NCBI GenBank assembly: GCA_036002325.1
Contig: DASYTJ010000012.1
Coordinates: 61,457 to 125,456 of the forward strand
DNA: 64,000 nucleotides
Reading direction: 5' to 3'
Source: Thermoanaerobaculia bacterium
Lineage (GTDB): Bacteria; Acidobacteriota; Thermoanaerobaculia; Multivoradales; UBA5704
Shown: positions 2,795 through 62,293 of the stretch, piece after piece
Position numbering within the stretch: the stretch's first letter is position 1
Layout: every line of letters starts with the position of its first letter
The notes under the pieces: model-generated
Seen by the model: only the letters and a program-made list of their open reading frames with translations
What the model was told of the DNA's origin: nothing
The model's database searches: none
Translations under genes and position numbers: made by a program

Positions 2795-5700
2795 GTGGAA
2801 GCATTCTTCGTCCTCGTCGGGCTCGGGCTTTTGGGCATGGTGGCCGCAGCGCCGGTTCTGGCTATCATCGCCCTCGGGCGTGCGCGGCGTCTGGAGGCGC
2901 GCGTCGACATCCTGCAGACCGAGCTGACGGTCCTCAGGAGACACGTCGAGGCCTTCAAGACGGCGCCTTCCAGCCTGCCTGACGTTGAGGCGGTCGCCGC
3001 GCCGCGGCCTGAGCCGCCGCCGAAGCCGACCCCGCCGCCTGTTCCTGCCGTCGCGCCCGCGATGCCGGCCGCACCGCCGCCGGCCGCCACCGTGCCGCCG
3101 CGCCCCGTGCCGCCGATGACGGCTCCGGCGCCGCGGGTTGAGGCGAGAATCGAGCCGCGGCTCGAGCCGTCTCCGCCAATGCCTCCCGCTCCGCCGGCGC
3201 CTGCGGCGCCGCGGTTCGACTGGGAGAGCCTGCTGGGGCTGAAGGGAGCCGCCTGGCTGGGCGGCATCACGCTGGTCATCGCCGGCATCTTCCTCGCCAA
3301 GATGGCCTACGACGCCGGCTTCTTCAATCCCACGTTGCGCGCCGCCGCCATGGTGCTCGCCGGCGTCGGCGGGCTCATCTGGGCCGAGGTCAGCCTGCGC
3401 CGCGGCTATGTCACCACGGCCAACGCCGTCTCGGGCGCGGCCATCGCCGTCCTCTACACCGCCTTCTACGCGGCCCACGCCGTCTGGCACCTGCTGCCGC
3501 TCGGGCTCACTTTCCTGATGATGGCGCTGGTCACGGTGGTCGCCGGAGTGGTGGCCATCCGCTACGACGCGCTGTTCAGCGCCCTGCTCGGCCTGCTCGG
3601 CGGCTTCGCCACGCCGATCCTGCTGTCGACCGGCGAAGACCGGCCGGTGAGCCTCTTCTCCTACATCCTGCTGCTCAACCTCGGGCTCATGGCGGTCGCT
3701 GCGAAGAAGCGCTGGCATGGCCTCGTGCTGCTGGGGCTCGCCGGCACCTTTTTCATCGAGGCCGGCTGGGCCGCGAAGTTCCTGGCGCCGGAAAAGCTGA
3801 CGATCGGACTGCCGGTGTTCCTGATTTTCGGGCTGCTCTACCTCTTACTGCCGGCGATCGCCAAGCAGGAAGAGTCGCCGTCGTTGCTGCGGGCCGGCGC
3901 CGGGGGCATCGCCGTGCCGTTCCTCTTCGGCCTCTTCCTCGCCGGCAGCGCCCGCTACACCGGCGAGTGGCCGTTGCTCTTCGGCTATCTCGCGCTGCTC
4001 GACGCGGCGCTGATCGCCATCGCGCTGCTCCGCGGCCGGACCATCCTGCTGATCGGCGGCGCCGTCGCCACCGGCTTGACGCTGCCGCTCTGGGCGTTTC
4101 AGGGCCTCCGGCCGGCGGCGCTCTGGGGCCCGACGCTGGCGGTGATCGGCCTGGCGGCGCTGCTCAACCTGCCGGCGCGGCTGGCGCGACGGCTCGCGCC
4201 GCAGCGGCTGGAAGAGGACCGGGACGCCTACGAAGGCGCCGGCATCACGGCGGCGGCCGGCCTCGGCATCTACGCGCTCATCCTGGCGGAACGGGCGGCC
4301 GAACCGCCGTGGCCGTTCGCCGTCCTGCTCGCGGCGCTCACCCTTCTCCTCCTCGAACGTACCGGCGAGGAACGCCTGCGCTTCGTGATGCCCGTCGGCG
4401 CGACCGGCCTCGCGTTCCTGACGCAGATCTGGTTCCATCACGGCACGGCGGGCCCGACGCTGTGGCGCAACCTCGCCGTGCCGGTGCTCTTGGCGATCGT
4501 GCTGTCGCTCGTCGCCGCCCGCCGCGCCCGCGCGCCCATCAACGCCCTCGAGGACGAAGGAGGCGCGGTCGGGGCCACCATCGTCTCCGTACTCGGCTTG
4601 ATGGGCTGTCTGACCCCCGAGCTGGCAGCAGATCCCCTGCCGCTCTTCGCCGCGCTCGCCGTCTACGCCGTCCTGCTCGTCGTCTCGGCCCGGCGGCGGG
4701 ACTGGACTCCTCTCGTCGCGGCGGCTCTCGTTCTTTCGGCGGCCTTCGCCGTGGGATGGCAGGAAGGCTATTTCGAGGCGGCGGGCGGTGATCTCGCGGT
4801 CGTGCTGTCGATCTACGGCGTCTTCTATCTGGCGTTCCTCGTCCTGCCCTTCGCGCTCGCCGCGACGGTGGCTCCGGAGTGGCAGGAACGGCGGCTGCCG
4901 TGGATCAGCTCGGCGCTGGCCGGCCCGGCCTTCTTCCTGCCGCTCTACCGGGCGGTGTCGATCGGCTGGGGGAAGGCCTACATCGGTGCGCTGCCGCTGC
5001 TCCTGGCGGCGCTCAGCGTCGCGGCCGTGGCCGGCGTGAGGCGCCGCTTCGCCGCCGCGCCCGAGGGGACGCCGGAGGCGGGCCGCCGCCTCGGGTATCT
5101 GGCGCTCTTCTCCGCCGTCGCGCTCGGCTTCATCGCCGTGGCGATCCCGCTGCAGCTCCACCGCCAATGGATCACGGTCGGCTGGGCCCTCGAGGCCGCC
5201 GCGGTCTGGTGGCTGTTCGGCAAGCTGCCGCACCCGGGCCTGAAGTACTTCGGCGCGCTGCTCTTCGCCTTCGCGGGTGTGCGGCTGCTGGCGAATCCGG
5301 AGGTGCTGCGCTACGAGGAGCGCGGCCTGCCGATCGTCAACTGGCTGCTCTACACCTACGGCGTTCCGGCCCTCTGCTGCCTCGTCGGCGCCGTCTGGTT
5401 GAAGCGGGCGGAGGCGGCGCGGCAGGGCGCGCCGGACTACGACTTCCTCGCCGGAGACCGGAAGGTCCTGCCGCCGGCCGCGGCGGGCCTCGGCCTCATC
5501 CTTCTTTTCGCATTGATCAACCTGGAGATCATCGACTTCTTCTCCACCTCCCGGTACGTGGAGCTCAGCACGGAGCGCCAGCTCGCCCGCGACCTGACGA
5601 TGTCGTTGGCCTGGGGGCTCTACGCCATGGCGCTGCTGTTGACGGGCCTCTGGCGCAAGCTGCGGGCGCTGCGCTTCCTCTCCCTCGGCTTCCTGCTGCT

Positions 5701-5845
5701 GACCGTGGCCAAGGTCTTCCTCTACGACCTCTCGAACCTGGAAGGCGGCTACCGGATCCTCTCCTTCCTGGGTCTCGGCGTGGCGCTGATCCTCGTTTCC
5801 CTGCTCTACCAGCGCTTCATCCTGGTGCAGGAACGCTCGTCCTGA
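2795..5845 (+). CDS. DUF2339 family large polytopic membrane protein
   Basis: 1016 aa; N-terminal TM, coiled-coil, Pro-rich linker, then about 20 predicted TM helices; WESLLGLKGAAWLGGITLVIAGIFLAKMAYD region typical of DUF2339. Confidence 0.65.
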   Translation: MEAFFVLVGLGLLGMVAAAPVLAIIALGRARRLEARVDILQTELTVLRRHVEAFKTAPSSLPDVEAVAAPRPEPPPKPTPPPVPAVAPAMPAAPPPAATVPPRPVPPMTAPAPRVEARIEPRLEPSPPMPPAPPAPAAPRFDWESLLGLKGAAWLGGITLVIAGIFLAKMAYDAGFFNPTLRAAAMVLAGVGGLIWAEVSLRRGYVTTANAVSGAAIAVLYTAFYAAHAVWHLLPLGLTFLMMALVTVVAGVVAIRYDALFSALLGLLGGFATPILLSTGEDRPVSLFSYILLLNLGLMAVAAKKRWHGLVLLGLAGTFFIEAGWAAKFLAPEKLTIGLPVFLIFGLLYLLLPAIAKQEESPSLLRAGAGGIAVPFLFGLFLAGSARYTGEWPLLFGYLALLDAALIAIALLRGRTILLIGGAVATGLTLPLWAFQGLRPAALWGPTLAVIGLAALLNLPARLARRLAPQRLEEDRDAYEGAGITAAAGLGIYALILAERAAEPPWPFAVLLAALTLLLLERTGEERLRFVMPVGATGLAFLTQIWFHHGTAGPTLWRNLAVPVLLAIVLSLVAARRARAPINALEDEGGAVGATIVSVLGLMGCLTPELAADPLPLFAALAVYAVLLVVSARRRDWTPLVAAALVLSAAFAVGWQEGYFEAAGGDLAVVLSIYGVFYLAFLVLPFALAATVAPEWQERRLPWISSALAGPAFFLPLYRAVSIGWGKAYIGALPLLLAALSVAAVAGVRRRFAAAPEGTPEAGRRLGYLALFSAVALGFIAVAIPLQLHRQWITVGWALEAAAVWWLFGKLPHPGLKYFGALLFAFAGVRLLANPEVLRYEERGLPIVNWLLYTYGVPALCCLVGAVWLKRAEAARQGAPDYDFLAGDRKVLPPAAAGLGLILLFALINLEIIDFFSTSRYVELSTERQLARDLTMSLAWGLYAMALLLTGLWRKLRALRFLSLGFLLLTVAKVFLYDLSNLEGGYRILSFLGLGVALILVSLLYQRFILVQERSS

Positions 5846-5907
5846 AGCAGTATTGAGACCGCGCACCGGAAAAGACTGAGCCGCGGGCCGGCCGCCGGGG
5901 CTCGCTG

Positions 5908-6020
5908 CTAGCTCTTATCCCCGCCGCCCTTTGCCAACAGCCTCGCCCTCCCGCCGCGCCAGCTCCACCGTTGCGGCTTCCTTCCTGGCGGCTTCGCAGA
6001 ACATCCGCTTGCCCGCCTGC
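5908..6020. repeat. Direct repeat copy A (about 110 bp) flanking methyltransferase gene
   Basis: about 85% identical to 6785-6900, with a perfect ~55-nt core (cgccgcgccagctccaccgttgcggcttccttcctggcggcttcgcagaa). Confidence 0.8.
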
Positions 6021-6026
6021 GCAGGT

Positions 6027-6773
6027 CTAGATTGCGGCCTTCGAGTTTCTCCAGACCATGGTGATGCCTTCGCGAAGGGAGCTCGGCAGGAGCCGGTAAA
6101 CAGCGTTTTTGAGAGCTCCTAGGGCCACCTTCCGTCCCGCGGCCTCTCCGGATTCGTGATGCGCGAATCTCGCGTCGAAGTAGAAGGCCACCGTACACTG
6201 CTCGACTTGAAATCCCAGCTCAGCCGCCAATCCGGCGAGCTCTCTACGGGTGTACTCCCGGAAATGACCAGGATTCTGGGGGTCCAAGCGAATCATCTGG
6301 GAGGGGTTACGACCGAGCAGCAGCTTCAACCTCTTGGGCAGCGAGGCGGCGTTGGGCGTTTGCAGAACGAGACGACCACCGTCGCTCAACAGCGTCCGAA
6401 CGAAGCTCAGCACCAACTGAGGAGACGTGTAAAGGTGCTCGAGAACCTCGGCCATCACCACAAAGTCATATCTCGGGAGGTCGCGCCGCCAATTTTCTCT
6501 TCGCTGAGCCAGATTCAGATCGAACGCGAAGTGCCTGCCTTCGGCGGTCACTCGGTCCTCGCCGAACCCTAGCGAGTCGACCGCGATGCCGAATCTCTCC
6601 CGGATGAGCGTGGTCAACCGCGACGGGCCGATGTCCAGAACCTTCGAGTCTGTTCCAAGACCGTGTTTGGCCAGCACCTCCAGCAGGTAGGCATACCGCG
6701 CCGCGTGATAGGCCACATATCCTTGATCGTCGCCTCGGATGGCGCGCGCTGACAGCTCCGACGCCCTTCTCAT
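6027..6773 (-). CDS. Class I SAM-dependent methyltransferase
   Basis: 248 aa; VLDIGPS (motif I), FDFVVMAEVLEHL, GGRLVLQTPN; visibly lower GC than neighbours. Confidence 0.7.
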   Translation of the reverse strand: MRRASELSARAIRGDDQGYVAYHAARYAYLLEVLAKHGLGTDSKVLDIGPSRLTTLIRERFGIAVDSLGFGEDRVTAEGRHFAFDLNLAQRRENWRRDLPRYDFVVMAEVLEHLYTSPQLVLSFVRTLLSDGGRLVLQTPNAASLPKRLKLLLGRNPSQMIRLDPQNPGHFREYTRRELAGLAAELGFQVEQCTVAFYFDARFAHHESGEAAGRKVALGALKNAVYRLLPSSLREGITMVWRNSKAAI

Positions 6774-6784
6774 CGACGCCTAGC

Positions 6785-6900
6785 CCTTATCCCCCACCCC
6801 CCTCTGCCTCTTGCCGAAAGCCTCGCCCGCCCGCCGCGCCAGCTCCACCGTTGCGGCTTCCTTCCTGGCGGCTTCGCAGAATATTCGCCTGCCTGGGAGA
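6785..6900. repeat. Direct repeat copy B flanking methyltransferase gene
   Basis: See copy A; lies between methyltransferase start and GH47 stop. Confidence 0.8.
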
Positions 6901-6950
6901 TCCCATCGTGGTTCAGGTCCGCAGCTCGCAGCCATCCACGCCGGCCAGGC

Positions 6951-8318
6951 TCACCGGCTCCGTTTCAACGGGTGCGCTTCCGTGTTGAATACCACTTTTT
7001 TGAGGTCGAGCGTGTCGTCGGGCGCGAAGAGGAGGTAGAGGTACTTGAGCGTCTCGGCCAGGAAGTAGCTCGGCATCAGGTCGCCCTTCTCCTTGGTGGT
7101 GACGTCTTTGAGGACCGTGTAGCCGGCGTCGGTGCGGCAGTGGGCGGCGAGCCCCTCGACGAAGGTCTTTCCCATCTCCAAGTATCGCGGATCCTTCGTC
7201 AAGCGGTGGAGGATGTAGGCCGACTCCATGATCTCCGGCCGCAGTTGGTAGCCGGGCGAGGTGATCTTCATCGTCTTGTAGTCGAGGACCTCGGGCTCGA
7301 TGCCTTGGAGGTTCCACATCTTGTAGGCGGAAGCCTGGAGGCGGCGGGCGCGGCCGAGATCGCCGCCGAGCGCCAGGACCGCCGGCAGGAAGGCGTGCAG
7401 GGCGCCGAACTCGGTGGCCGTTCGCTTCCCCGTCCTCATGTCGGCCTGCCCGTACCAGAGTCCCGTCGGCGCGTCGTCGGCCAGGCGCCGGTCGAGCGCG
7501 CGGCGGCTCTCCCGCCACATCCGGTCGCAGTCCTTGTCGCCGAAGAGGAGCGAGCACTTCAGAAGGTACTCGTAATAGGAGTCGATGCCGCCGCCTACGT
7601 GGCTGGCCGGGCTCACCCACTCGCCGGTCTCGACGTCGATCTCCTCGCCGACGAGGCCGAGCGGCGAGCGGCGGTTGTAGAGCTGGACGAGGGCGTTCTT
7701 GGCCTTGTCGAAGAAAACCGGCTTGCCGGTGAGCCGCGCCAGGGTGCCGAATTCGAGGACGAGCGTGCCGATCTCGGCGGGGTTGGAGCGGGCGCCGGAG
7801 GTCTTGCCCGTCTTCAGGTTGACGTACATGTAGGGCATGCCGGTCGGCGAGCTGAAGGCGGGTAGGAGGCGCGTCCCCAAATCCTCGGCGAGGCGCAGCA
7901 GCCGCGGATCGCCGGTCATCTGGTAGCCCGAGAGCAGTCCGCCGAGGAGCCGGATGGTGATCTCGAAGTTCTTGACCGGGACGTCCTGGTCGAAGGAGAG
8001 CTTGTCGCCGACCAGCGCCTGTGCCTTCGCCGCCTCGTCCTTGAGGCCCATCAGCAGCAGCGTGTCGAGGGCGTCGACCGGCGTCATGAGCAGGGAGCCG
8101 GCGTGCCAGTCGCGCGGCGCTTTGCTCAGGGGCCGGAGCTCGTCGTGCCCCCAGGCATACTGCTCATAGGCCTGCCAGGCATGGAGCATCTCGGCGCGGA
8201 CGCGGCCGGCCATCTCGGCGCGGTTGACGGGACCGGGGCCCGCGGACGGACCGGCGCCGGCCGATGCTTCAAATAAGGAGAGGACGAGGATGGCGGGGAC
8301 AGCGGGGCGGAGTTTCAT
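6951..8318 (-). CDS. Glycoside hydrolase family 47 (alpha-1,2-mannosidase-like), secreted
   Basis: GH47 motifs (AWQAYEQYAWGHDELRP, FEITIRLLGGLLS, GGGIDSYYEYLLK, ETLKYLYLLF); likely start at MKLRPAVPAILVLSLF signal peptide (8318); ORF track extends to 8393. Confidence 0.7.
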   Translation of the reverse strand: MKLRPAVPAILVLSLFEASAGAGPSAGPGPVNRAEMAGRVRAEMLHAWQAYEQYAWGHDELRPLSKAPRDWHAGSLLMTPVDALDTLLLMGLKDEAAKAQALVGDKLSFDQDVPVKNFEITIRLLGGLLSGYQMTGDPRLLRLAEDLGTRLLPAFSSPTGMPYMYVNLKTGKTSGARSNPAEIGTLVLEFGTLARLTGKPVFFDKAKNALVQLYNRRSPLGLVGEEIDVETGEWVSPASHVGGGIDSYYEYLLKCSLLFGDKDCDRMWRESRRALDRRLADDAPTGLWYGQADMRTGKRTATEFGALHAFLPAVLALGGDLGRARRLQASAYKMWNLQGIEPEVLDYKTMKITSPGYQLRPEIMESAYILHRLTKDPRYLEMGKTFVEGLAAHCRTDAGYTVLKDVTTKEKGDLMPSYFLAETLKYLYLLFAPDDTLDLKKVVFNTEAHPLKRSR

Positions 8319-8491
8319 GGGAACGAATTCTGACAGACGCCGAGGCGAAGCACCACGGCAGGCAATCGGCAATCCAAAGGTGAAATTCCGCATGGAGACG
8401 GCAATTTAAAGATTTCTCGTGATTCTCCGCGACGGCGCCTCCCTTGCTGGAAGGCAGCACAGAAGCCCATACCGGCGGTACGTTTCTTGTC

Positions 8492-26824: not shown

Positions 26825-26834
26825 GGGGTGGTCC

Positions 26835-26864
26835 TGTAGGGGCGCAGCATGCTGCGCCCCTACA
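26835..26864. terminator. REP-like perfect palindrome (cctGTAGGGGCGCAGCATGCTGCGCCCCTACaa), bidirectional terminator candidate
   Basis: 28-30 nt perfect palindrome between convergent BNR gene (ends 26824) and rpsU (ends 26930); identical 33-nt copy at 62255-62287, variant at 46467-46488. Confidence 0.6.
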
Positions 26865-26929
26865 AAGCAAAACGGGAGGAAGCTCAGAGGCTCCCTCCCG
26901 TCTGCTGGCGCTCGGACGGAGCTACCGTC

Positions 26930-41315: not shown

Positions 41316-41789
41316 ATGGCCGAGAGAGTCAAACCCTATAAGTCCGCGATCAACTACTGGCTGCTCGCCACCGATCCGGACGAATACAGCTACTACGATC
41401 TGGAGCGCGACACTGCCACGGTCTGGGACGGCGTCACCGATTACGAGGATCTGAAGACCCTGCGGGACGTCGAGCCCGACGAGGAGGCGCTCATTTTCCA
41501 CGCGGGCACGGAGCTCGCAATCGTCGGCATCGCCCGCATAACCTCGGATCCCTATCCGAACCCTCAGGGCACGAGCCCCGACGAAGTCGTGGTCGACGTC
41601 GTCCCCGAGCGGCGTCTGGAACGACCGTTACCGCTCGTCGAGTTCGAGGATCTTCCCGAGTTCGAGGACTTCGACCTGGTGGCAAACCCCGACCTCTCCG
41701 TCGTGCCCGTCACGCCGGAGCTCTGGAACCGGCTTCTCGAGCTGAGCGGGGCCGCGCTGGCGCTGTCCACACAGGAGGATCAGGAGTAG
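41316..41789 (+). CDS. EVE (PUA-like) domain protein
   Basis: 157 aa; NYWLLATDPDEYSYYDL...IARITSDPYP pattern of EVE domain. Confidence 0.65.
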   Translation: MAERVKPYKSAINYWLLATDPDEYSYYDLERDTATVWDGVTDYEDLKTLRDVEPDEEALIFHAGTELAIVGIARITSDPYPNPQGTSPDEVVVDVVPERRLERPLPLVEFEDLPEFEDFDLVANPDLSVVPVTPELWNRLLELSGAALALSTQEDQE

Positions 41790-41825
41790 GCCCCCTCGAG
41801 AGCCACGGTCAAGAACCTCTTCCGA

Positions 41826-42235
41826 ACAAGCTTCAGGCGAGCCGATGCAAGCTTGTGGCGAGCCGATGCAAGCCTGAGGTGACGCGACTGAAGCTTGAAG
41901 TGGCGCAATTGAAGGCGCAAGTGACGCGACGACTGCTTGAAGTGGCGCGGCTGAAGCTTGCGGCGAGCGGGTCGAAGCTTCCAGCGAGGCGGCGGAAGCT
42001 TGCGGGATTTCCGGCAAGCTTCAGCCGCGACGGCGCAAGCTTCAGGCGAGTGGGCACAAGTTTGCGGCGTGACGCGCGAAGCTTGCGGTGACCCGGTTGC
42101 AGCTTGCCGGGAGACGCCTGAAGCTTCTGGCGAGCCGATTGAAGCTGCAAACGAAGCGCCTGAAGCTTGCGGGATCTCCGGCAAGCTTGAACCGCAGCGC
42201 CGCAAGCTTTCTCCCGAGCCGCCTGAAGCTTGCCG
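41826..42235. repeat. Tandem array of about 20 imperfect 21-bp repeats each beginning AAGCTT (HindIII palindrome)
   Basis: Units such as caAGCTTcaggcgagccgatg, caAGCTTgtggcgagccgatg, AAGCTTgcggcgagcgggtcg, AAGCTTcaggcgagtgggcac; occupies whole convergent intergenic gap between EVE gene and esterase gene; generates frame-shifting KL-heptad pseudo-ORFs on both strands. Confidence 0.85.
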
Positions 42236-42236
42236 C

Positions 42237-42986
42237 TCACCACCCCATCCAGTCGATCGCGTACGGCAGCATCTTGCGCCACCACGGCCAATCGTGGTTC
42301 ACGTCGTGGCCCCAGATGTCGAGGAAGTGGGGAATCCCCTTGCTGAACAGGAGATCCGAGAGCCGCCGCGAGGCGTGCGGCGCCTCGTAGGCGCCCTGGC
42401 CGGTGAGGATGTGGATCTTGCACGCCGTCTGCAGCAGATGAAGCTGCTGGCCCGCCAGGTTCGGCAGATACCAGGCGGGGTTGTTGAAATAGCAATTGTC
42501 GTCGCTGTAGCCGTGCAGATAGTCCGGCTCCAGATCGTAGAAGCCGCTCATGGCGATGACGGCGTCGAAGAGGTCCGGCCGTCGAAAAAGGATATTGGCC
42601 GCGTGGAAGGCGCCGAAGCTGGCGCCGCAGGTGGCGATGCGGAGGTCGGGCGTCTGGCAGGCCTGGCGGATGAAGGGGACGACCTCCTCCTCCACGTAAC
42701 GGGCGTAGAGGGCCTGCCGGCGCGCCTGCTCGGGCACCGGCAGGCTGCGGTCCATCCAGGCCTGCTGGTTGATGCTGTTGATCGAGAAGATCCGCACCCG
42801 GCCGGCGTCGAGAGCCTGGTCGGCCGCCCCGATCAGATGGAAGCGCTCGTTCTCCAGGAAGTCCGCGGCGGCCGTGGGAAAAAGCAGCAGCGGGTGACCC
42901 CAGTGGCCGTAGGAGACGATGGGCATGTCCTGCCCCAGGATCGGGCTGTGCCAGCCCGCAATCTCGCGCCGATCGCCATACCCCAT
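42237..42986 (-). CDS. Esterase family alpha/beta hydrolase (putative esterase PF00756-like)
   Basis: Start at MGYGDRREIAGWHSP with RBS; GASFGAFHAANILF (G-x-S-x-G nucleophile elbow variant), C-terminal His. Confidence 0.6.
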   Translation of the reverse strand: MGYGDRREIAGWHSPILGQDMPIVSYGHWGHPLLLFPTAAADFLENERFHLIGAADQALDAGRVRIFSINSINQQAWMDRSLPVPEQARRQALYARYVEEEVVPFIRQACQTPDLRIATCGASFGAFHAANILFRRPDLFDAVIAMSGFYDLEPDYLHGYSDDNCYFNNPAWYLPNLAGQQLHLLQTACKIHILTGQGAYEAPHASRRLSDLLFSKGIPHFLDIWGHDVNHDWPWWRKMLPYAIDWMGW

Positions 42987-43099
42987 GGTCCTGGCCTCCT
43001 GCGGCTGAGCCCCGCGGAAAGAAATTGCGCCGGAGGATAACACTCTTGCTTGGCGAGGGCTGCCGGTGTCACAGTCCAACTTCCAGAGAGACCGGAGCC

Positions 43100-44953: not shown

Positions 44954-45037
44954 TCCGCTGCGTGGACGGGAGCACTAATGTGCTCCCGCCTTGTCCCGTT
45001 TTACCCTCCTCAAGCAACCATGTTTAGTAGGGAGGGC

Positions 45038-46435
45038 ATGCCGTATTCTCTAGTTCTGGGAGGGCCTAGAGTGAAGCTTCACCCCCATGATTTGTTGCTG
45101 CAGGAGTTCGCCGCCACCTTTTCGGAAGATCGCGCGGACTGCCTCGATCACCTCATTCGGTGCCCCCGCTGCCGGAAGCAGTTCAGATCACTGCTTCACT
45201 TGCAGCTGAACCCGCTTGCCGAAAACGTCGTCCCTCTCTGGCGCCAGCAGCCTGGGCCTGTAGACTACGAGCCGGGCTTGGCCAGGGTCTCTCGAGATCT
45301 CAAGCATCTTCCTTCTGCCTACGAGAAAGAGAGGGTGGAAGCGCTAGGGCTCTTTTCGGAGCTGTCGTCTTACCACCCCAGCAAGCAGTCGCTCATGGTG
45401 CGGAACTTTGAGCGGTTCCATACCTGGGGTCTCTGCGAGCTCCTTTTGCAGCGCACTCTGGAGCAGAACTTCCAGAATCCCTCTCTCGGCGAGAGTTTCG
45501 CCCTGCTGGCTCTCGAGATCTCAGATTACCTCGCAGACACCTACTATGGCGCCGAAGCGATCGAAGACCTAAGAGCGCGAGCTTGGGCTTACGTGGCAAA
45601 TGCGCGCCGGCTAAAGGCTGATCTGCGGGGAGCCGAAGAGGCGTTTGCCCTGGCGTTTGCCTGCCTCAGGCGAGGAACTCTGCACCCGATGGAGAAGGCT
45701 GTACTTCTCGATCTTCAGGCTTCACTCCTGAGAGCGCAACGGCGCTTCGGCAAGTCGTTGTCCCTTCTTCGACGTGCCGCGTCGATCTTCCGGAAACTTG
45801 GTGAGAAGCACCGCGCCGGCCGAGTTTTGATCAACATGTCCACGGTCTTCTACGTCGCAGGTGAGCCCAAGAAAGCTATCCCTCTGATCTATGAGGCGCT
45901 CGAGCTGATTGATCCGGCCAGGGAGCCACGCCTGCTGCTGAGCGTTTGGCATAATCTCATCTACAATCTCACCGAAATCGGCCAATTCATGGAAGCACAG
46001 CGGCTTTTCGTGAGGGCCAGGCCGCTTTACCGGCAATTCCCTGAGCCCTGGGCACAGAATCGTAGCGCGTGGGCTGAAGGCCGAATCGCTCGCGGCTTGG
46101 GTTTGCGGGAGCAGGCGGAAGATCTCTTCCTCGCGGCGCGTGCCGGCTTTCTTGCCGCGAAGGCTCCTTACGAGATGGCCCATGTCTCTCTTGAGCTCGC
46201 CTCTCTCTACGCGGAGGAAGGCCGGACGGCTGAGCTGAAGCAGCTCGCCGAGGAGATGATGCCCATCTTCTCCTCCCGTCAGATCCACCGTGAGGCGCTC
46301 GCGGCCCTCGCTTTCTGGAAGCAGGCGGTCGAGACGGAGAAGGCGGGACTGGAACTTGTAACGGGAGTGGCGTCCTTCCTCAAACGGGCACAGCACGATC
46401 CCGAGCTGCGATTCGAGCGGCCCAAAGAATCGTAG
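45038..46435 (+). CDS. TPR-repeat regulator with N-terminal HxxxCxxC zinc-finger (ZAS-like)
   Basis: RBS GGGAGGG upstream of ATG 45038 (alternative GTG 45071 at conserved VKLHPHD); LDHLIRCPRCRKQF zinc motif; multiple TPR-like helical repeats; lower GC (about 57%). Confidence 0.55.
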   Translation: MPYSLVLGGPRVKLHPHDLLLQEFAATFSEDRADCLDHLIRCPRCRKQFRSLLHLQLNPLAENVVPLWRQQPGPVDYEPGLARVSRDLKHLPSAYEKERVEALGLFSELSSYHPSKQSLMVRNFERFHTWGLCELLLQRTLEQNFQNPSLGESFALLALEISDYLADTYYGAEAIEDLRARAWAYVANARRLKADLRGAEEAFALAFACLRRGTLHPMEKAVLLDLQASLLRAQRRFGKSLSLLRRAASIFRKLGEKHRAGRVLINMSTVFYVAGEPKKAIPLIYEALELIDPAREPRLLLSVWHNLIYNLTEIGQFMEAQRLFVRARPLYRQFPEPWAQNRSAWAEGRIARGLGLREQAEDLFLAARAGFLAAKAPYEMAHVSLELASLYAEEGRTAELKQLAEEMMPIFSSRQIHREALAALAFWKQAVETEKAGLELVTGVASFLKRAQHDPELRFERPKES

Positions 46436-46466
46436 CGCCAATCTGCCAATAGAGGAAAAGCGGCTG

Positions 46467-46488
46467 GGGGCGCAGCATGCTGCGCCCC
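46467..46488. terminator. REP-like palindrome variant GGGGCGCAGCATGCTGCGCCCC
   Basis: Between convergent TPR gene (ends 46435) and cupredoxin-like gene (ends 46500). Confidence 0.5.
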
Positions 46489-46499
46489 ACTTAAGAGGT

Positions 46500-62237: not shown

Positions 62238-62257
62238 GCCTCCGCCTCCTCGCCTCC

Positions 62258-62287
62258 TGTAGGGGCGCAGCATGCTGCGCCCCTACA
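62258..62287. terminator. REP-like perfect palindrome, identical copy of 26835-26864 element
   Basis: Between convergent CsgG-like gene and kinase-TonB gene. Confidence 0.6.
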
Positions 62288-62293
62288 ATGGTC

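Follow-up and report, generated by a model that had tools for sequence, protein, structure and literature searches.

Direct repeats resembling the 3' end of an XRE-HTH/TPR regulator gene bracket a methyltransferase gene in a Thermoanaerobaculia genome

The locus described here lies in a 64,000-nucleotide stretch of DNA from a Thermoanaerobaculia bacterium (Acidobacteriota; assembly GCA_036002325.1, contig DASYTJ010000012.1, positions 61,457 to 125,456 of the forward strand), which we call the window. In it a gene for a predicted class I S-adenosylmethionine (SAM)-dependent methyltransferase of 248 aa (MT; 6027..6773, minus strand, 747 bp) is the single-copy insert between two direct repeats. 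One repeat copy, R_A (5908..6026, minus strand), is 3' of MT and begins directly after the MT stop codon; the other, R_B (6780..6906, minus strand), is 5' of MT in the MT sense and ends 6 nt before the MT ATG. The resulting unit, R-MT-R, fills the slot between two convergent genes. One wall of the slot is a complete gene for a GH47 glycoside hydrolase (6951..8393, minus strand; Pfam Glyco_hydro_47 at 1e-123), and the other is a gene for a DUF2339 membrane protein (2795..5845, plus strand; Pfam DUF2339 at 2e-90). An earlier note on this DNA had proposed that a methyltransferase cassette was inserted between GH47 and DUF2339 with duplication of the target intergenic sequence or, alternatively, that a repeated regulatory element serves the gene at both ends.

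The two repeats are real by alignment. When gaps are allowed, R_A and R_B align over 109 columns, with 11 mismatches and gaps that total 8 nt. A perfect core of 52 nt on the minus strand (5950..6001 in R_A, identical to 6830..6881 in R_B) is set between flanks that are about 20% divergent and contain an 8-nt indel; the similarity weakens beyond 6020 and 6900 and fades at about 6026 and 6906. The identity is thus a mosaic, with 0/51 mismatches in the core against 11/58 in the flanks (Fisher's exact test, P = 0.0007), and a perfect run of at least 52 nt would be rare if the 11 mismatches were placed at random (P = 0.006, run-length test). The 51-nt core has two matches in the window against none expected from shuffles. 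The coordinates first given for copy A (5908-6020) and for the end of copy B (6900) hold, but copy B starts with CTAG at 6780 and not at 6785. The common start TAGCyCTTATCCCC is in both copies, as had been said, and so is GGCGGCTTCGCAGAA. R_B supplies the 5' leader of MT, including a weak Shine-Dalgarno (SD)-like AAGGG and AGG. The whole 1.1 kb of R-MT-R is 100% identical in a separately assembled JGI contig (L084, 3300036861). An assembler-specific artefact is therefore unlikely, the unit being identical in an NCBI TPA metagenome-assembled genome (MAG) and in a JGI assembly.

The repeats can be traced to a protein-coding gene when they are read on the MT-sense strand. There the core encodes RIFCEAARKEAATVELARR, the conserved C-terminal motif of regulators that combine an XRE-type helix-turn-helix (HTH; HTH_3/HTH_31) with TPR_12 tetratricopeptide repeats (TPR). 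In R_B the core codes for (I)FCEAARKEAATVELARR. Minus frame 2 reads ..DLPGRRIFCEAARKEAATVELARRAGEAFGKRQRGVGDKG* in R_B and ..AQAGKRMFCEAARKEAATVELARREGEAVGKGRRG* in R_A, the motif stretches being ..GRRIFCEAARKEAATVELARRAGEAFGK.. and ..GKRMFCEAARKEAATVELARREGEAVGK.., respectively. The small plus-strand open reading frames (ORFs) noted earlier in each repeat do exist, but the informative frame is on the minus strand and the plus-strand ORFs are the antisense of the regulator relic. Several searches point to the same family. In a back-translated pattern scan of metagenome contigs, the 51-aa ORF of R_B found three loci, each of them the C-terminus of a long protein. The regulator on contig L089, of 582-597 aa, ends in ...EALKALRIFCEAARQETATVELARRIVRYLYRAQGDPELRFEEAGAE*, and R_B is identical to it at 17/19 aa of the motif. 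The similarity extends to the DNA: over 51-58 nt (window 5951-6008), which is where the perfect core lies, R and the motif-coding DNA of L089 and L088 are 84% identical. In the reciprocal direction, regulator C-termini searched by tblastn against the six-frame window found only the two R copies and a paralogue at 44978-46435, with E values of 1e-8 to 1e-6. A phmmer search over 1.84 billion representative proteins gave one significant match, a small ORF on contig L091 (E = 5e-4). No candidates came from a protein search of the 5.8-billion word index with the 51-aa R_B ORF.

Like the XRE-HTH + TPR regulators (RNPP-like; Pfam HTH_3 + TPR_12), R has their C-terminal motif in its core, but unlike them it lacks both HTH and TPRs and is not joined to a longer ORF. 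Between the GH47 stop and MT there are no more than about 52 relic codons, and none of the HTH or TPR part is among them. R is thus a fragment and not a family member. Towards the edges the likeness fades: in tblastn, the R_B region and the last ~50 aa of the regulator on contig L097 share 21/51 identities, a weak match in which W, S, G, E and L on the N-terminal side of the motif and Q, G and K on its C-terminal side are common to both. The same search gave faint homology, which is weak evidence, for a possible further relic of the regulator outside the repeat and upstream of R_B (6907..6941, minus strand; WMAASCGPEPRWDL). Both R copies show states that no family member has, G(K/R)R before the motif and (A/E)GEA(F/V)GK after it, and with these shared derived states both must descend from one copy that was already truncated or divergent. 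We conclude that R is a duplicated relic, ~115 nt long, of the last ~40-50 codons of a regulator gene.

A divergent full-length paralogue of the regulator is found elsewhere in the window (44978..46435, plus strand; 485 aa, TPR_12). Its motif region, ALAFWKQAVETEKAGLELVTG, differs, and it is therefore not the recent source of R. The N-terminus of this paralogue is Cys-rich (CPRCRKQF) in place of the XRE HTH, and its GC content at third codon positions (GC3), 0.69, is the lowest in the window; the GC3 of the L097 regulator is also low (0.74). The L091 match (415-633) is an ORF of 63-72 aa that consists of two tandem copies of the regulator motif (..ALAALRLFCDAALQEAATVELA / WIFKAQGLHKESLAALKLFCEAARREEATAKLAREV..) and is divergent from a 122-aa XRE HTH gene. 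The tandem copies indicate that the motif-coding segment was duplicated independently elsewhere.

The assignment of MT rests on profile and fold. The protein matches Pfam Methyltransf_23 at 55 bits (cut-off 27; E 1e-14). Its AlphaFold2 (AF2) model (pLDDT 86) has a predicted Rossmann methyltransferase fold, and its top Foldseek matches are all class I methyltransferases. Among solved structures, the nearest to the model are two uncharacterised structural-genomics methyltransferases (3cc8 and 2p7h), together with small-molecule methyltransferases. By both measures the product is predicted to be a class I SAM-dependent methyltransferase. A further check named in the earlier note was whether MT is an antibiotic-resistance or rRNA methyltransferase or a natural-product O-methyltransferase. 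An rRNA or resistance enzyme finds no support: no curated family matches, NCBIfam gives only sub-threshold matches (to UbiG, OvoA-C and Tam), and the best PDB matches are the uncharacterised or small-molecule enzymes just mentioned. No match to defence systems was found, and a phage origin was rejected as no viral relatives of MT were found.

MT has 664 homologues in several phyla, with 57-85% identity among the 120 matches listed. Conservation within the family is strong, 45 columns being invariant in a set of 40 homologues. Class I methyltransferases normally carry a GxGxG SAM-binding loop; in this family LDIGPSRLT replaces it as motif I in all homologues. Other conserved blocks are QTPNAAS, GRNPYEMIR..NPGHFREYT and FYFDARFA, and the MT of the window departs from the family at a few near-invariant positions (HAARY for HAPRY, NPSQM for NPYEM). 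That MT is lower in GC than the flanking genes is borne out: its GC is 0.604 and its GC3 0.72, against 0.666 and 0.90 for GH47 and 0.713 and 0.92 for DUF2339. Its GC3 is the second lowest among the 37 long ORFs of the window (mean 0.844, sd 0.064). MT homologues are also GC-poorer than their neighbours in 6/6 other hosts checked, so that low GC appears to be a trait of the family and is weak evidence for a recent arrival.

The surroundings of MT differ in every other genome examined. Six other contexts were compared, with homologues of 69-85% identity. In these MT is found behind PilR on L001, between HupE and gas-vesicle genes on L003 and L085/L086, and after a repeat-rich ORF on L087. On L092/L093 it is fused behind an FAD/BBE oxidase gene, on L094 it follows CstA fragments, and on L097/L098 it is next to an Rhs toxin gene. 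None of the six has direct repeats around MT. Some of these contexts have peculiarities of their own. On L003 the 3' end of the homologue is truncated by an insertion sequence (IS; DDE_Tnp_1, 6616-7785), and in front of the homologue there is a second copy of 72 nt of the HupE 5' end, 92% identical to the first (5550-5621 / 5827-5898) and unrelated to R. On L087, at least nine tandem 41-nt units (41-461), inside a called 185-aa ORF, stand directly upstream of MT. An alignment of the 3' end of R with the conserved ~25 nt upstream of MT in L003, L085 and L087 was unconvincing, and this homology was rejected.

Two of the contexts connect MT with the regulator family. On L097/L098 an intact module has the order 491-aa regulator, 96-aa gene, 217-aa HTH-like gene and MT, with the regulator, the 217-aa gene and MT on one strand and the 96-aa gene on the other. 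The 491-aa regulator is 48% identical to the L089 protein. On L092/L093 a 213-aa gene orthologous to the 217-aa gene (60% identity) overlaps the 3' end of MT, and a decayed regulator lies 1 kb away; relative to the module, MT has opposite orientations in L092 and L097. On L089 and L088 the same regulator module begins but is cut off by the contig ends. In the window, R_B is upstream of MT and on the same strand, which is where the regulator is in L097, and the simplest reading of this placement is that MT came with the debris of a former neighbour. We found nothing relevant to a regulator/MT module in the literature. Directly downstream of the module on L097/L098 there is a very large SpvB/TcdB/RHS-repeat toxin gene with an RNase_A_bac tip (L097 6538-10810).

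The slot itself has different contents in different relatives. GH47 and DUF2339 are syntenic in L004 and L096. On L096, where GH47 and DUF2339 are 85% and 84% identical in aa to those of the window, the stops of the convergent genes are 75 nt apart, with neither MT nor R in the spacer; a second JGI contig, listed without DNA, groups with L096 as an empty site. On L004 (GH47 87% identical) a GDSL/SGNH hydrolase gene follows GH47 and precedes DUF2339 (77% identity). Downstream of GH47 there is an SGNH hydrolase and then an unidentified gene on L095 (GH47 89%), an SGNH hydrolase and then an alpha/beta hydrolase on L081 (91%), and an alpha/beta hydrolase on L067 (90%). R has no similarity to the SGNH or alpha/beta-hydrolase genes of the slot, and we rejected it as a remnant of either. 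The MAG that contains L004 carries an MT homologue (85% identity) on a different contig, behind the PilR-like gene (L001). A scan with the GH47 protein, covering one genome per species, yielded 80 loci from other species, and none of the 80 has R-like DNA or MT beside GH47.

The MT-free spacer of L096 and the different placing of MT elsewhere, together with the lower GC3 of the gene, uphold the proposal that MT is an insertion between GH47 and DUF2339. The GH47-DUF2339 adjacency without MT that had been expected in relatives is found in L096, but the single repeat copy that should have accompanied it is absent there. The companion claim, that the repeats are a duplicated target sequence, fails: R-like DNA is in neither the empty site nor any of the 80 GH47 loci, and R derives from the 3' end of a regulator gene. 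The exact boundaries of the insertion cannot be mapped against the empty site, the spacers being too diverged. The best explanation, which we hold with roughly even confidence, is a lineage-specific insertion of ~1.05 kb into a spacer that is filled differently in different relatives. The end of GH47 may preserve a sign of the event. GH47 of the window ends in ...EAHPLKRSR* (6913-6953), and all close relatives end in ...EAHPLRRTW*; CTGCGGACCTGA, found 20-36 nt past the GH47 stop of the window, resembles the terminal CTGCGGCGGACCTGGTAG of the relatives and may be a trace of a rearrangement at the junction, or chance.

R-MT-R is in several respects like elements of known kinds. Campbell-type integration accounts for the attL/attR repeats that border elements integrated into gene 3' ends. 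R-MT-R is similar in that a single-copy insert is set between direct repeats made of a gene 3' end. Both repeats consist of the coding sequence of the regulator C-terminal motif in the same orientation, with an identical core and arms that are diverged but homologous, and excision by recombination between the repeats is predicted. Unlike such elements, the insert has one 747-bp ORF, MT, and no integrase or excisionase, no intact target gene is present upstream of R_B, and the exchange may be of the plain RecA type at the 52-nt identity. The geometry also fits the term "cassette-like", a promoterless MT ORF being packed between similar repeats of ~115-120 nt, as in integrons. However, R-MT-R is one gene with two repeats and has no palindromic attC, no R'/R'' boxes and no IntI, and R is a fragment of a protein-coding gene. 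R was rejected as an attC site or integron cassette, as it has neither an imperfect-palindrome hairpin nor the GTTRRRY and RYYYAAC boxes (GCCAAC is in copy A only, copy B having GCCGAA, and GTTGCGG does not fit GTTRRRY). No cassette array is seen, with only two R copies in 64 kb and no integrase among the called neighbours of the locus, which are GH47, DUF2339, a histidine kinase, a response regulator and a glycerate-kinase-like gene. The called genes within ~4 kb on either side include no integrase, transposase or reverse transcriptase.

Other candidates fared no better. The repeats resemble the template and variable repeats (TR/VR) of diversity-generating retroelements (DGRs) in being two, of ~110 nt and ~85-90% identical, with one at the 3' end of a gene. 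Unlike TR/VR pairs, they have an invariant and not a variable centre, no reverse transcriptase is nearby, and their 11 mismatches are not adenine-specific, including as they do G/C, G/A, A/G, A/C, G/T, T/C and C/G in both directions; the DGR candidate was rejected on the last two counts. A transposon insertion with target-site duplication was rejected too, since the repeats are ~115 nt long and diverged, with no terminal inverted repeats and no transposase. The suggestion of a repeated regulatory element, with a promoter in copy B and the 3' end of the transcript in copy A, is not supported: a consensus scan found no sigma-70-like promoter or terminator inside R, a search of Rfam gave no family, and neither the RNA folds (z +0.2 to +2.1) nor the single-stranded DNA folds (z +0.7 to +1.9) of both copies on both strands are more stable than shuffles. 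A structured RNA, riboswitch or small RNA was rejected on the RNA folds and the Rfam result. A check for dispersed repeats of the repetitive extragenic palindrome (REP) or miniature inverted-repeat transposable element (MITE) kind counted the two R copies in the window. In the JGI metagenome and viral contig collections scanned, neither a 24-mer nor a 22-mer of the core has an exact match, and no viral relatives of the R peptide were found. Frame 2 of R_B agrees with the reading frame of GH47, at a distance of 171 nt from the GH47 TGA. Stop-codon read-through fusing the motif to GH47 was rejected, and the frame agreement is treated as a coincidence, because the motif frame of R_A is out of frame with MT and the GH47 domain is complete. 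Finally, R-MT-R resembles gene remnants in variable hot spots between convergent genes, in that the slot is empty in one relative and has unrelated genes in others, and that MT is compositionally atypical and accompanied by pseudogene debris of a former neighbour. It differs from these in having the debris duplicated around MT, with the conserved-motif core perfectly preserved.

R-MT-R is not a new kind of mobile element; it is largely an ordinary horizontal gene and scar event. We favour, at about even chances, the insertion of a nomadic MT whose repeats are a duplicated relic of a regulator tail and mark a recombination scar. MT would have come in together with part of a regulator gene's 3' end, or would have recombined at it, and homologous recombination of two diverged copies would have duplicated this part. 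A Campbell-type single crossover of a circular R+MT segment into a resident R would be the simplest route. The 52-nt core would then be the tract of exchange or gene conversion, homogenised by heteroduplex repair, and the remainder of the regulator gene would have been lost. The core tract coincides with the motif-coding DNA, which is the part with detectable DNA homology to the regulator family. The flanking direct repeats predict that MT is occasionally lost by recombination, leaving one R.

The repeats probably have no function of their own today, the leader that R_B gives to MT being incidental. A consensus scan found no promoter-like site for MT; for a terminator-like hairpin with a T-run after R_A (5869..5893, hairpin 5893-5879, minus strand), it found one site against 1.1 expected. 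This hairpin is a likely end of a GH47-MT transcript. The lack of a promoter, the 6-nt gap to R_B and the hairpin after R_A suggest that MT is co-transcribed with GH47, probably by read-through from GH47 that ends after R_A. The recombination route, the co-transcription and the lack of a function for R are inferred.

Several points weigh against insertion by this route. A resident R is found in no relative, and the Campbell route needs this unobserved earlier state; neither a circular form nor a recombinase was detected. The closest GH47 proteins in databases are 85-91% identical, with no strain-level relatives among them, and the R copies of the source genome were counted within the 64-kb window. 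The R flanks are only faintly like the regulator family, MT and the regulator are adjacent in only two of the six other contexts, and, in comparison with the layout of L097, one has to assume an internal deletion of ~1.3 kb between the regulator stop and the start of MT. The absence of synonymous differences in 17 codons of the core would also agree with nucleotide-level selection. Both assemblies, moreover, may stem from the same reads.

The strongest rival dispenses with any mobility of R+MT. An old duplication of [R-MT] in situ, for instance in tandem, would have been followed by loss of the second MT and neutral decay of the flanks, the core being kept identical by repeated gene conversion. 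The partner in the conversion would be the other copy, 880 bp away, or an intact paralogue at another place in the genome. The derived residues and the approximate 5' breakpoint that R_A and R_B have in common agree with such a history. So do the different ancestral residues kept upstream of the motif (A-8 and A-6 in R_A, L-7 in R_B), which suggest independent decay afterwards, and the fact that the core is exactly the part that is homologous to, and hence convertible by, other family members. However, the scheme takes more steps, a duplication and a precise deletion of the second MT, and the 64-kb window offers no donor paralogue with an identical core, its sole paralogue differing in the motif. 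We rate it as clearly less probable than not. Duplication with gene conversion fits about as well as the Campbell route, and the two are inseparable with two sequences.

That R is functional, with the core under selection, we consider unlikely. The copies would encode mini-proteins (51 aa in R_B, 29 aa in R_A) that bear the C-terminal helix motif of the regulator and act, for example, as a decoy or partner of XRE-HTH/TPR regulators, or they would be cis-acting DNA or RNA sites. ATG-initiated ORFs in the motif frame are present in both copies, the GC3 of frame 2 is coding-like, the core is invariant while the flanks drift, and the stand-alone tandem-motif ORF of 63-72 aa beside a small XRE gene in another metagenome (P0121/L091) offers a parallel. 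Yet a peptide under selection would be expected to accumulate synonymous differences, and the 17 codons show none. The start codon is not conserved (ATG in R_A is ATA in R_B), no convincing SD sequence is seen, and the flank substitutions are spread 3/3/4 over the codon positions with no coding signature. The lack of a stable RNA or DNA structure, of an Rfam match and of any protein in the word index counts against a functional R as well.

In a bolder version of the insertion, to which we would assign a small probability, R+MT is a minimal homology-guided cassette for which the conserved motif-coding 3' end of the multi-copy regulator family serves as a portable landing pad. By recombination within the 52-nt core, a circle of 880 bp made of R+MT would move from one family member, or the relic of one, to another, and such hopping, if true, would explain why nearly every genome has the MT family at a different site. 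In a softer variant, which shares this small probability, the R copies are stand-alone mini-proteins that mimic the C-terminal helix of the regulator.

A site-specific mini-cassette, in which R is the attachment site of a recombinase encoded elsewhere and the 880-bp R+MT circle targets regulator-family 3' ends, much as integron cassettes or islands that insert at gene 3' ends behave, is a reading we give little credence. The tight, ORF-only insert, with R 6 nt before the ATG at one end and directly after the stop at the other, would suit it, as would the attL/attR pattern of an identical core with diverged homologous arms, the new place of MT in every genome and the inversion of MT relative to the module between L092 and L097. 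But no other MT homologue examined is flanked by repeats, the annotated neighbourhood has no integrase or transposase, attC-like hairpins and conserved GTTRRRY/RYYYAAC boxes are missing, no intact target gene precedes R_B, and scans of the metagenome and viral collections did not find the core 24-mer. We thus take a dedicated site-specific system to be less likely than the Campbell route or a local duplication. An assembly artefact, in which strain variants were joined into a chimera in metagenome assembly, would be helped by the MAG source and by an identical core (52-63 nt) shorter than a read, but is hardly credible given that the NCBI and JGI assemblies agree throughout, that the copies differ in their flanks so that reads spanning each are distinguishable, and that an intact MT ORF abuts both copies.

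The window has other repeats. A degenerate tandem array with a period of 21 bp and ~15-19 units (41806-42209; consensus about CAAGCTTCAGGCGAGCCGATG) lies between a 157-aa ORF (41316-41789, plus strand) and an esterase-like ORF (42237-43079, minus strand) and looks non-coding. A perfect 34-nt palindrome, TCCTGTAGGGGCGCAGCATGCTGCGCCCCTACAA, which is REP- or terminator-like, occurs at 26832-26865 and 62255-62288 with 100% identity. A 74% copy of it (46460-46493) is directly after the stop of the regulator paralogue, and a similar GTAGGGGCGGCC... hairpin is found in L003 (3100-3179).

With R-MT-R, a three-state insertion hot spot between two convergent genes is documented in Thermoanaerobaculia. 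The comparisons also document a widespread, strongly conserved and GC-poor methyltransferase family that is differently placed in every host, and a recurrent link of MT with an uncharacterised XRE-HTH/TPR regulator module. When a foreign-looking gene has cassette-like repeats on both sides, these can be the debris of a former neighbour that recombination has duplicated, and not target duplications or the ends of a mobile element. If the cassette reading were true, such repeats would provide a simple, integrase-free route for moving single genes.

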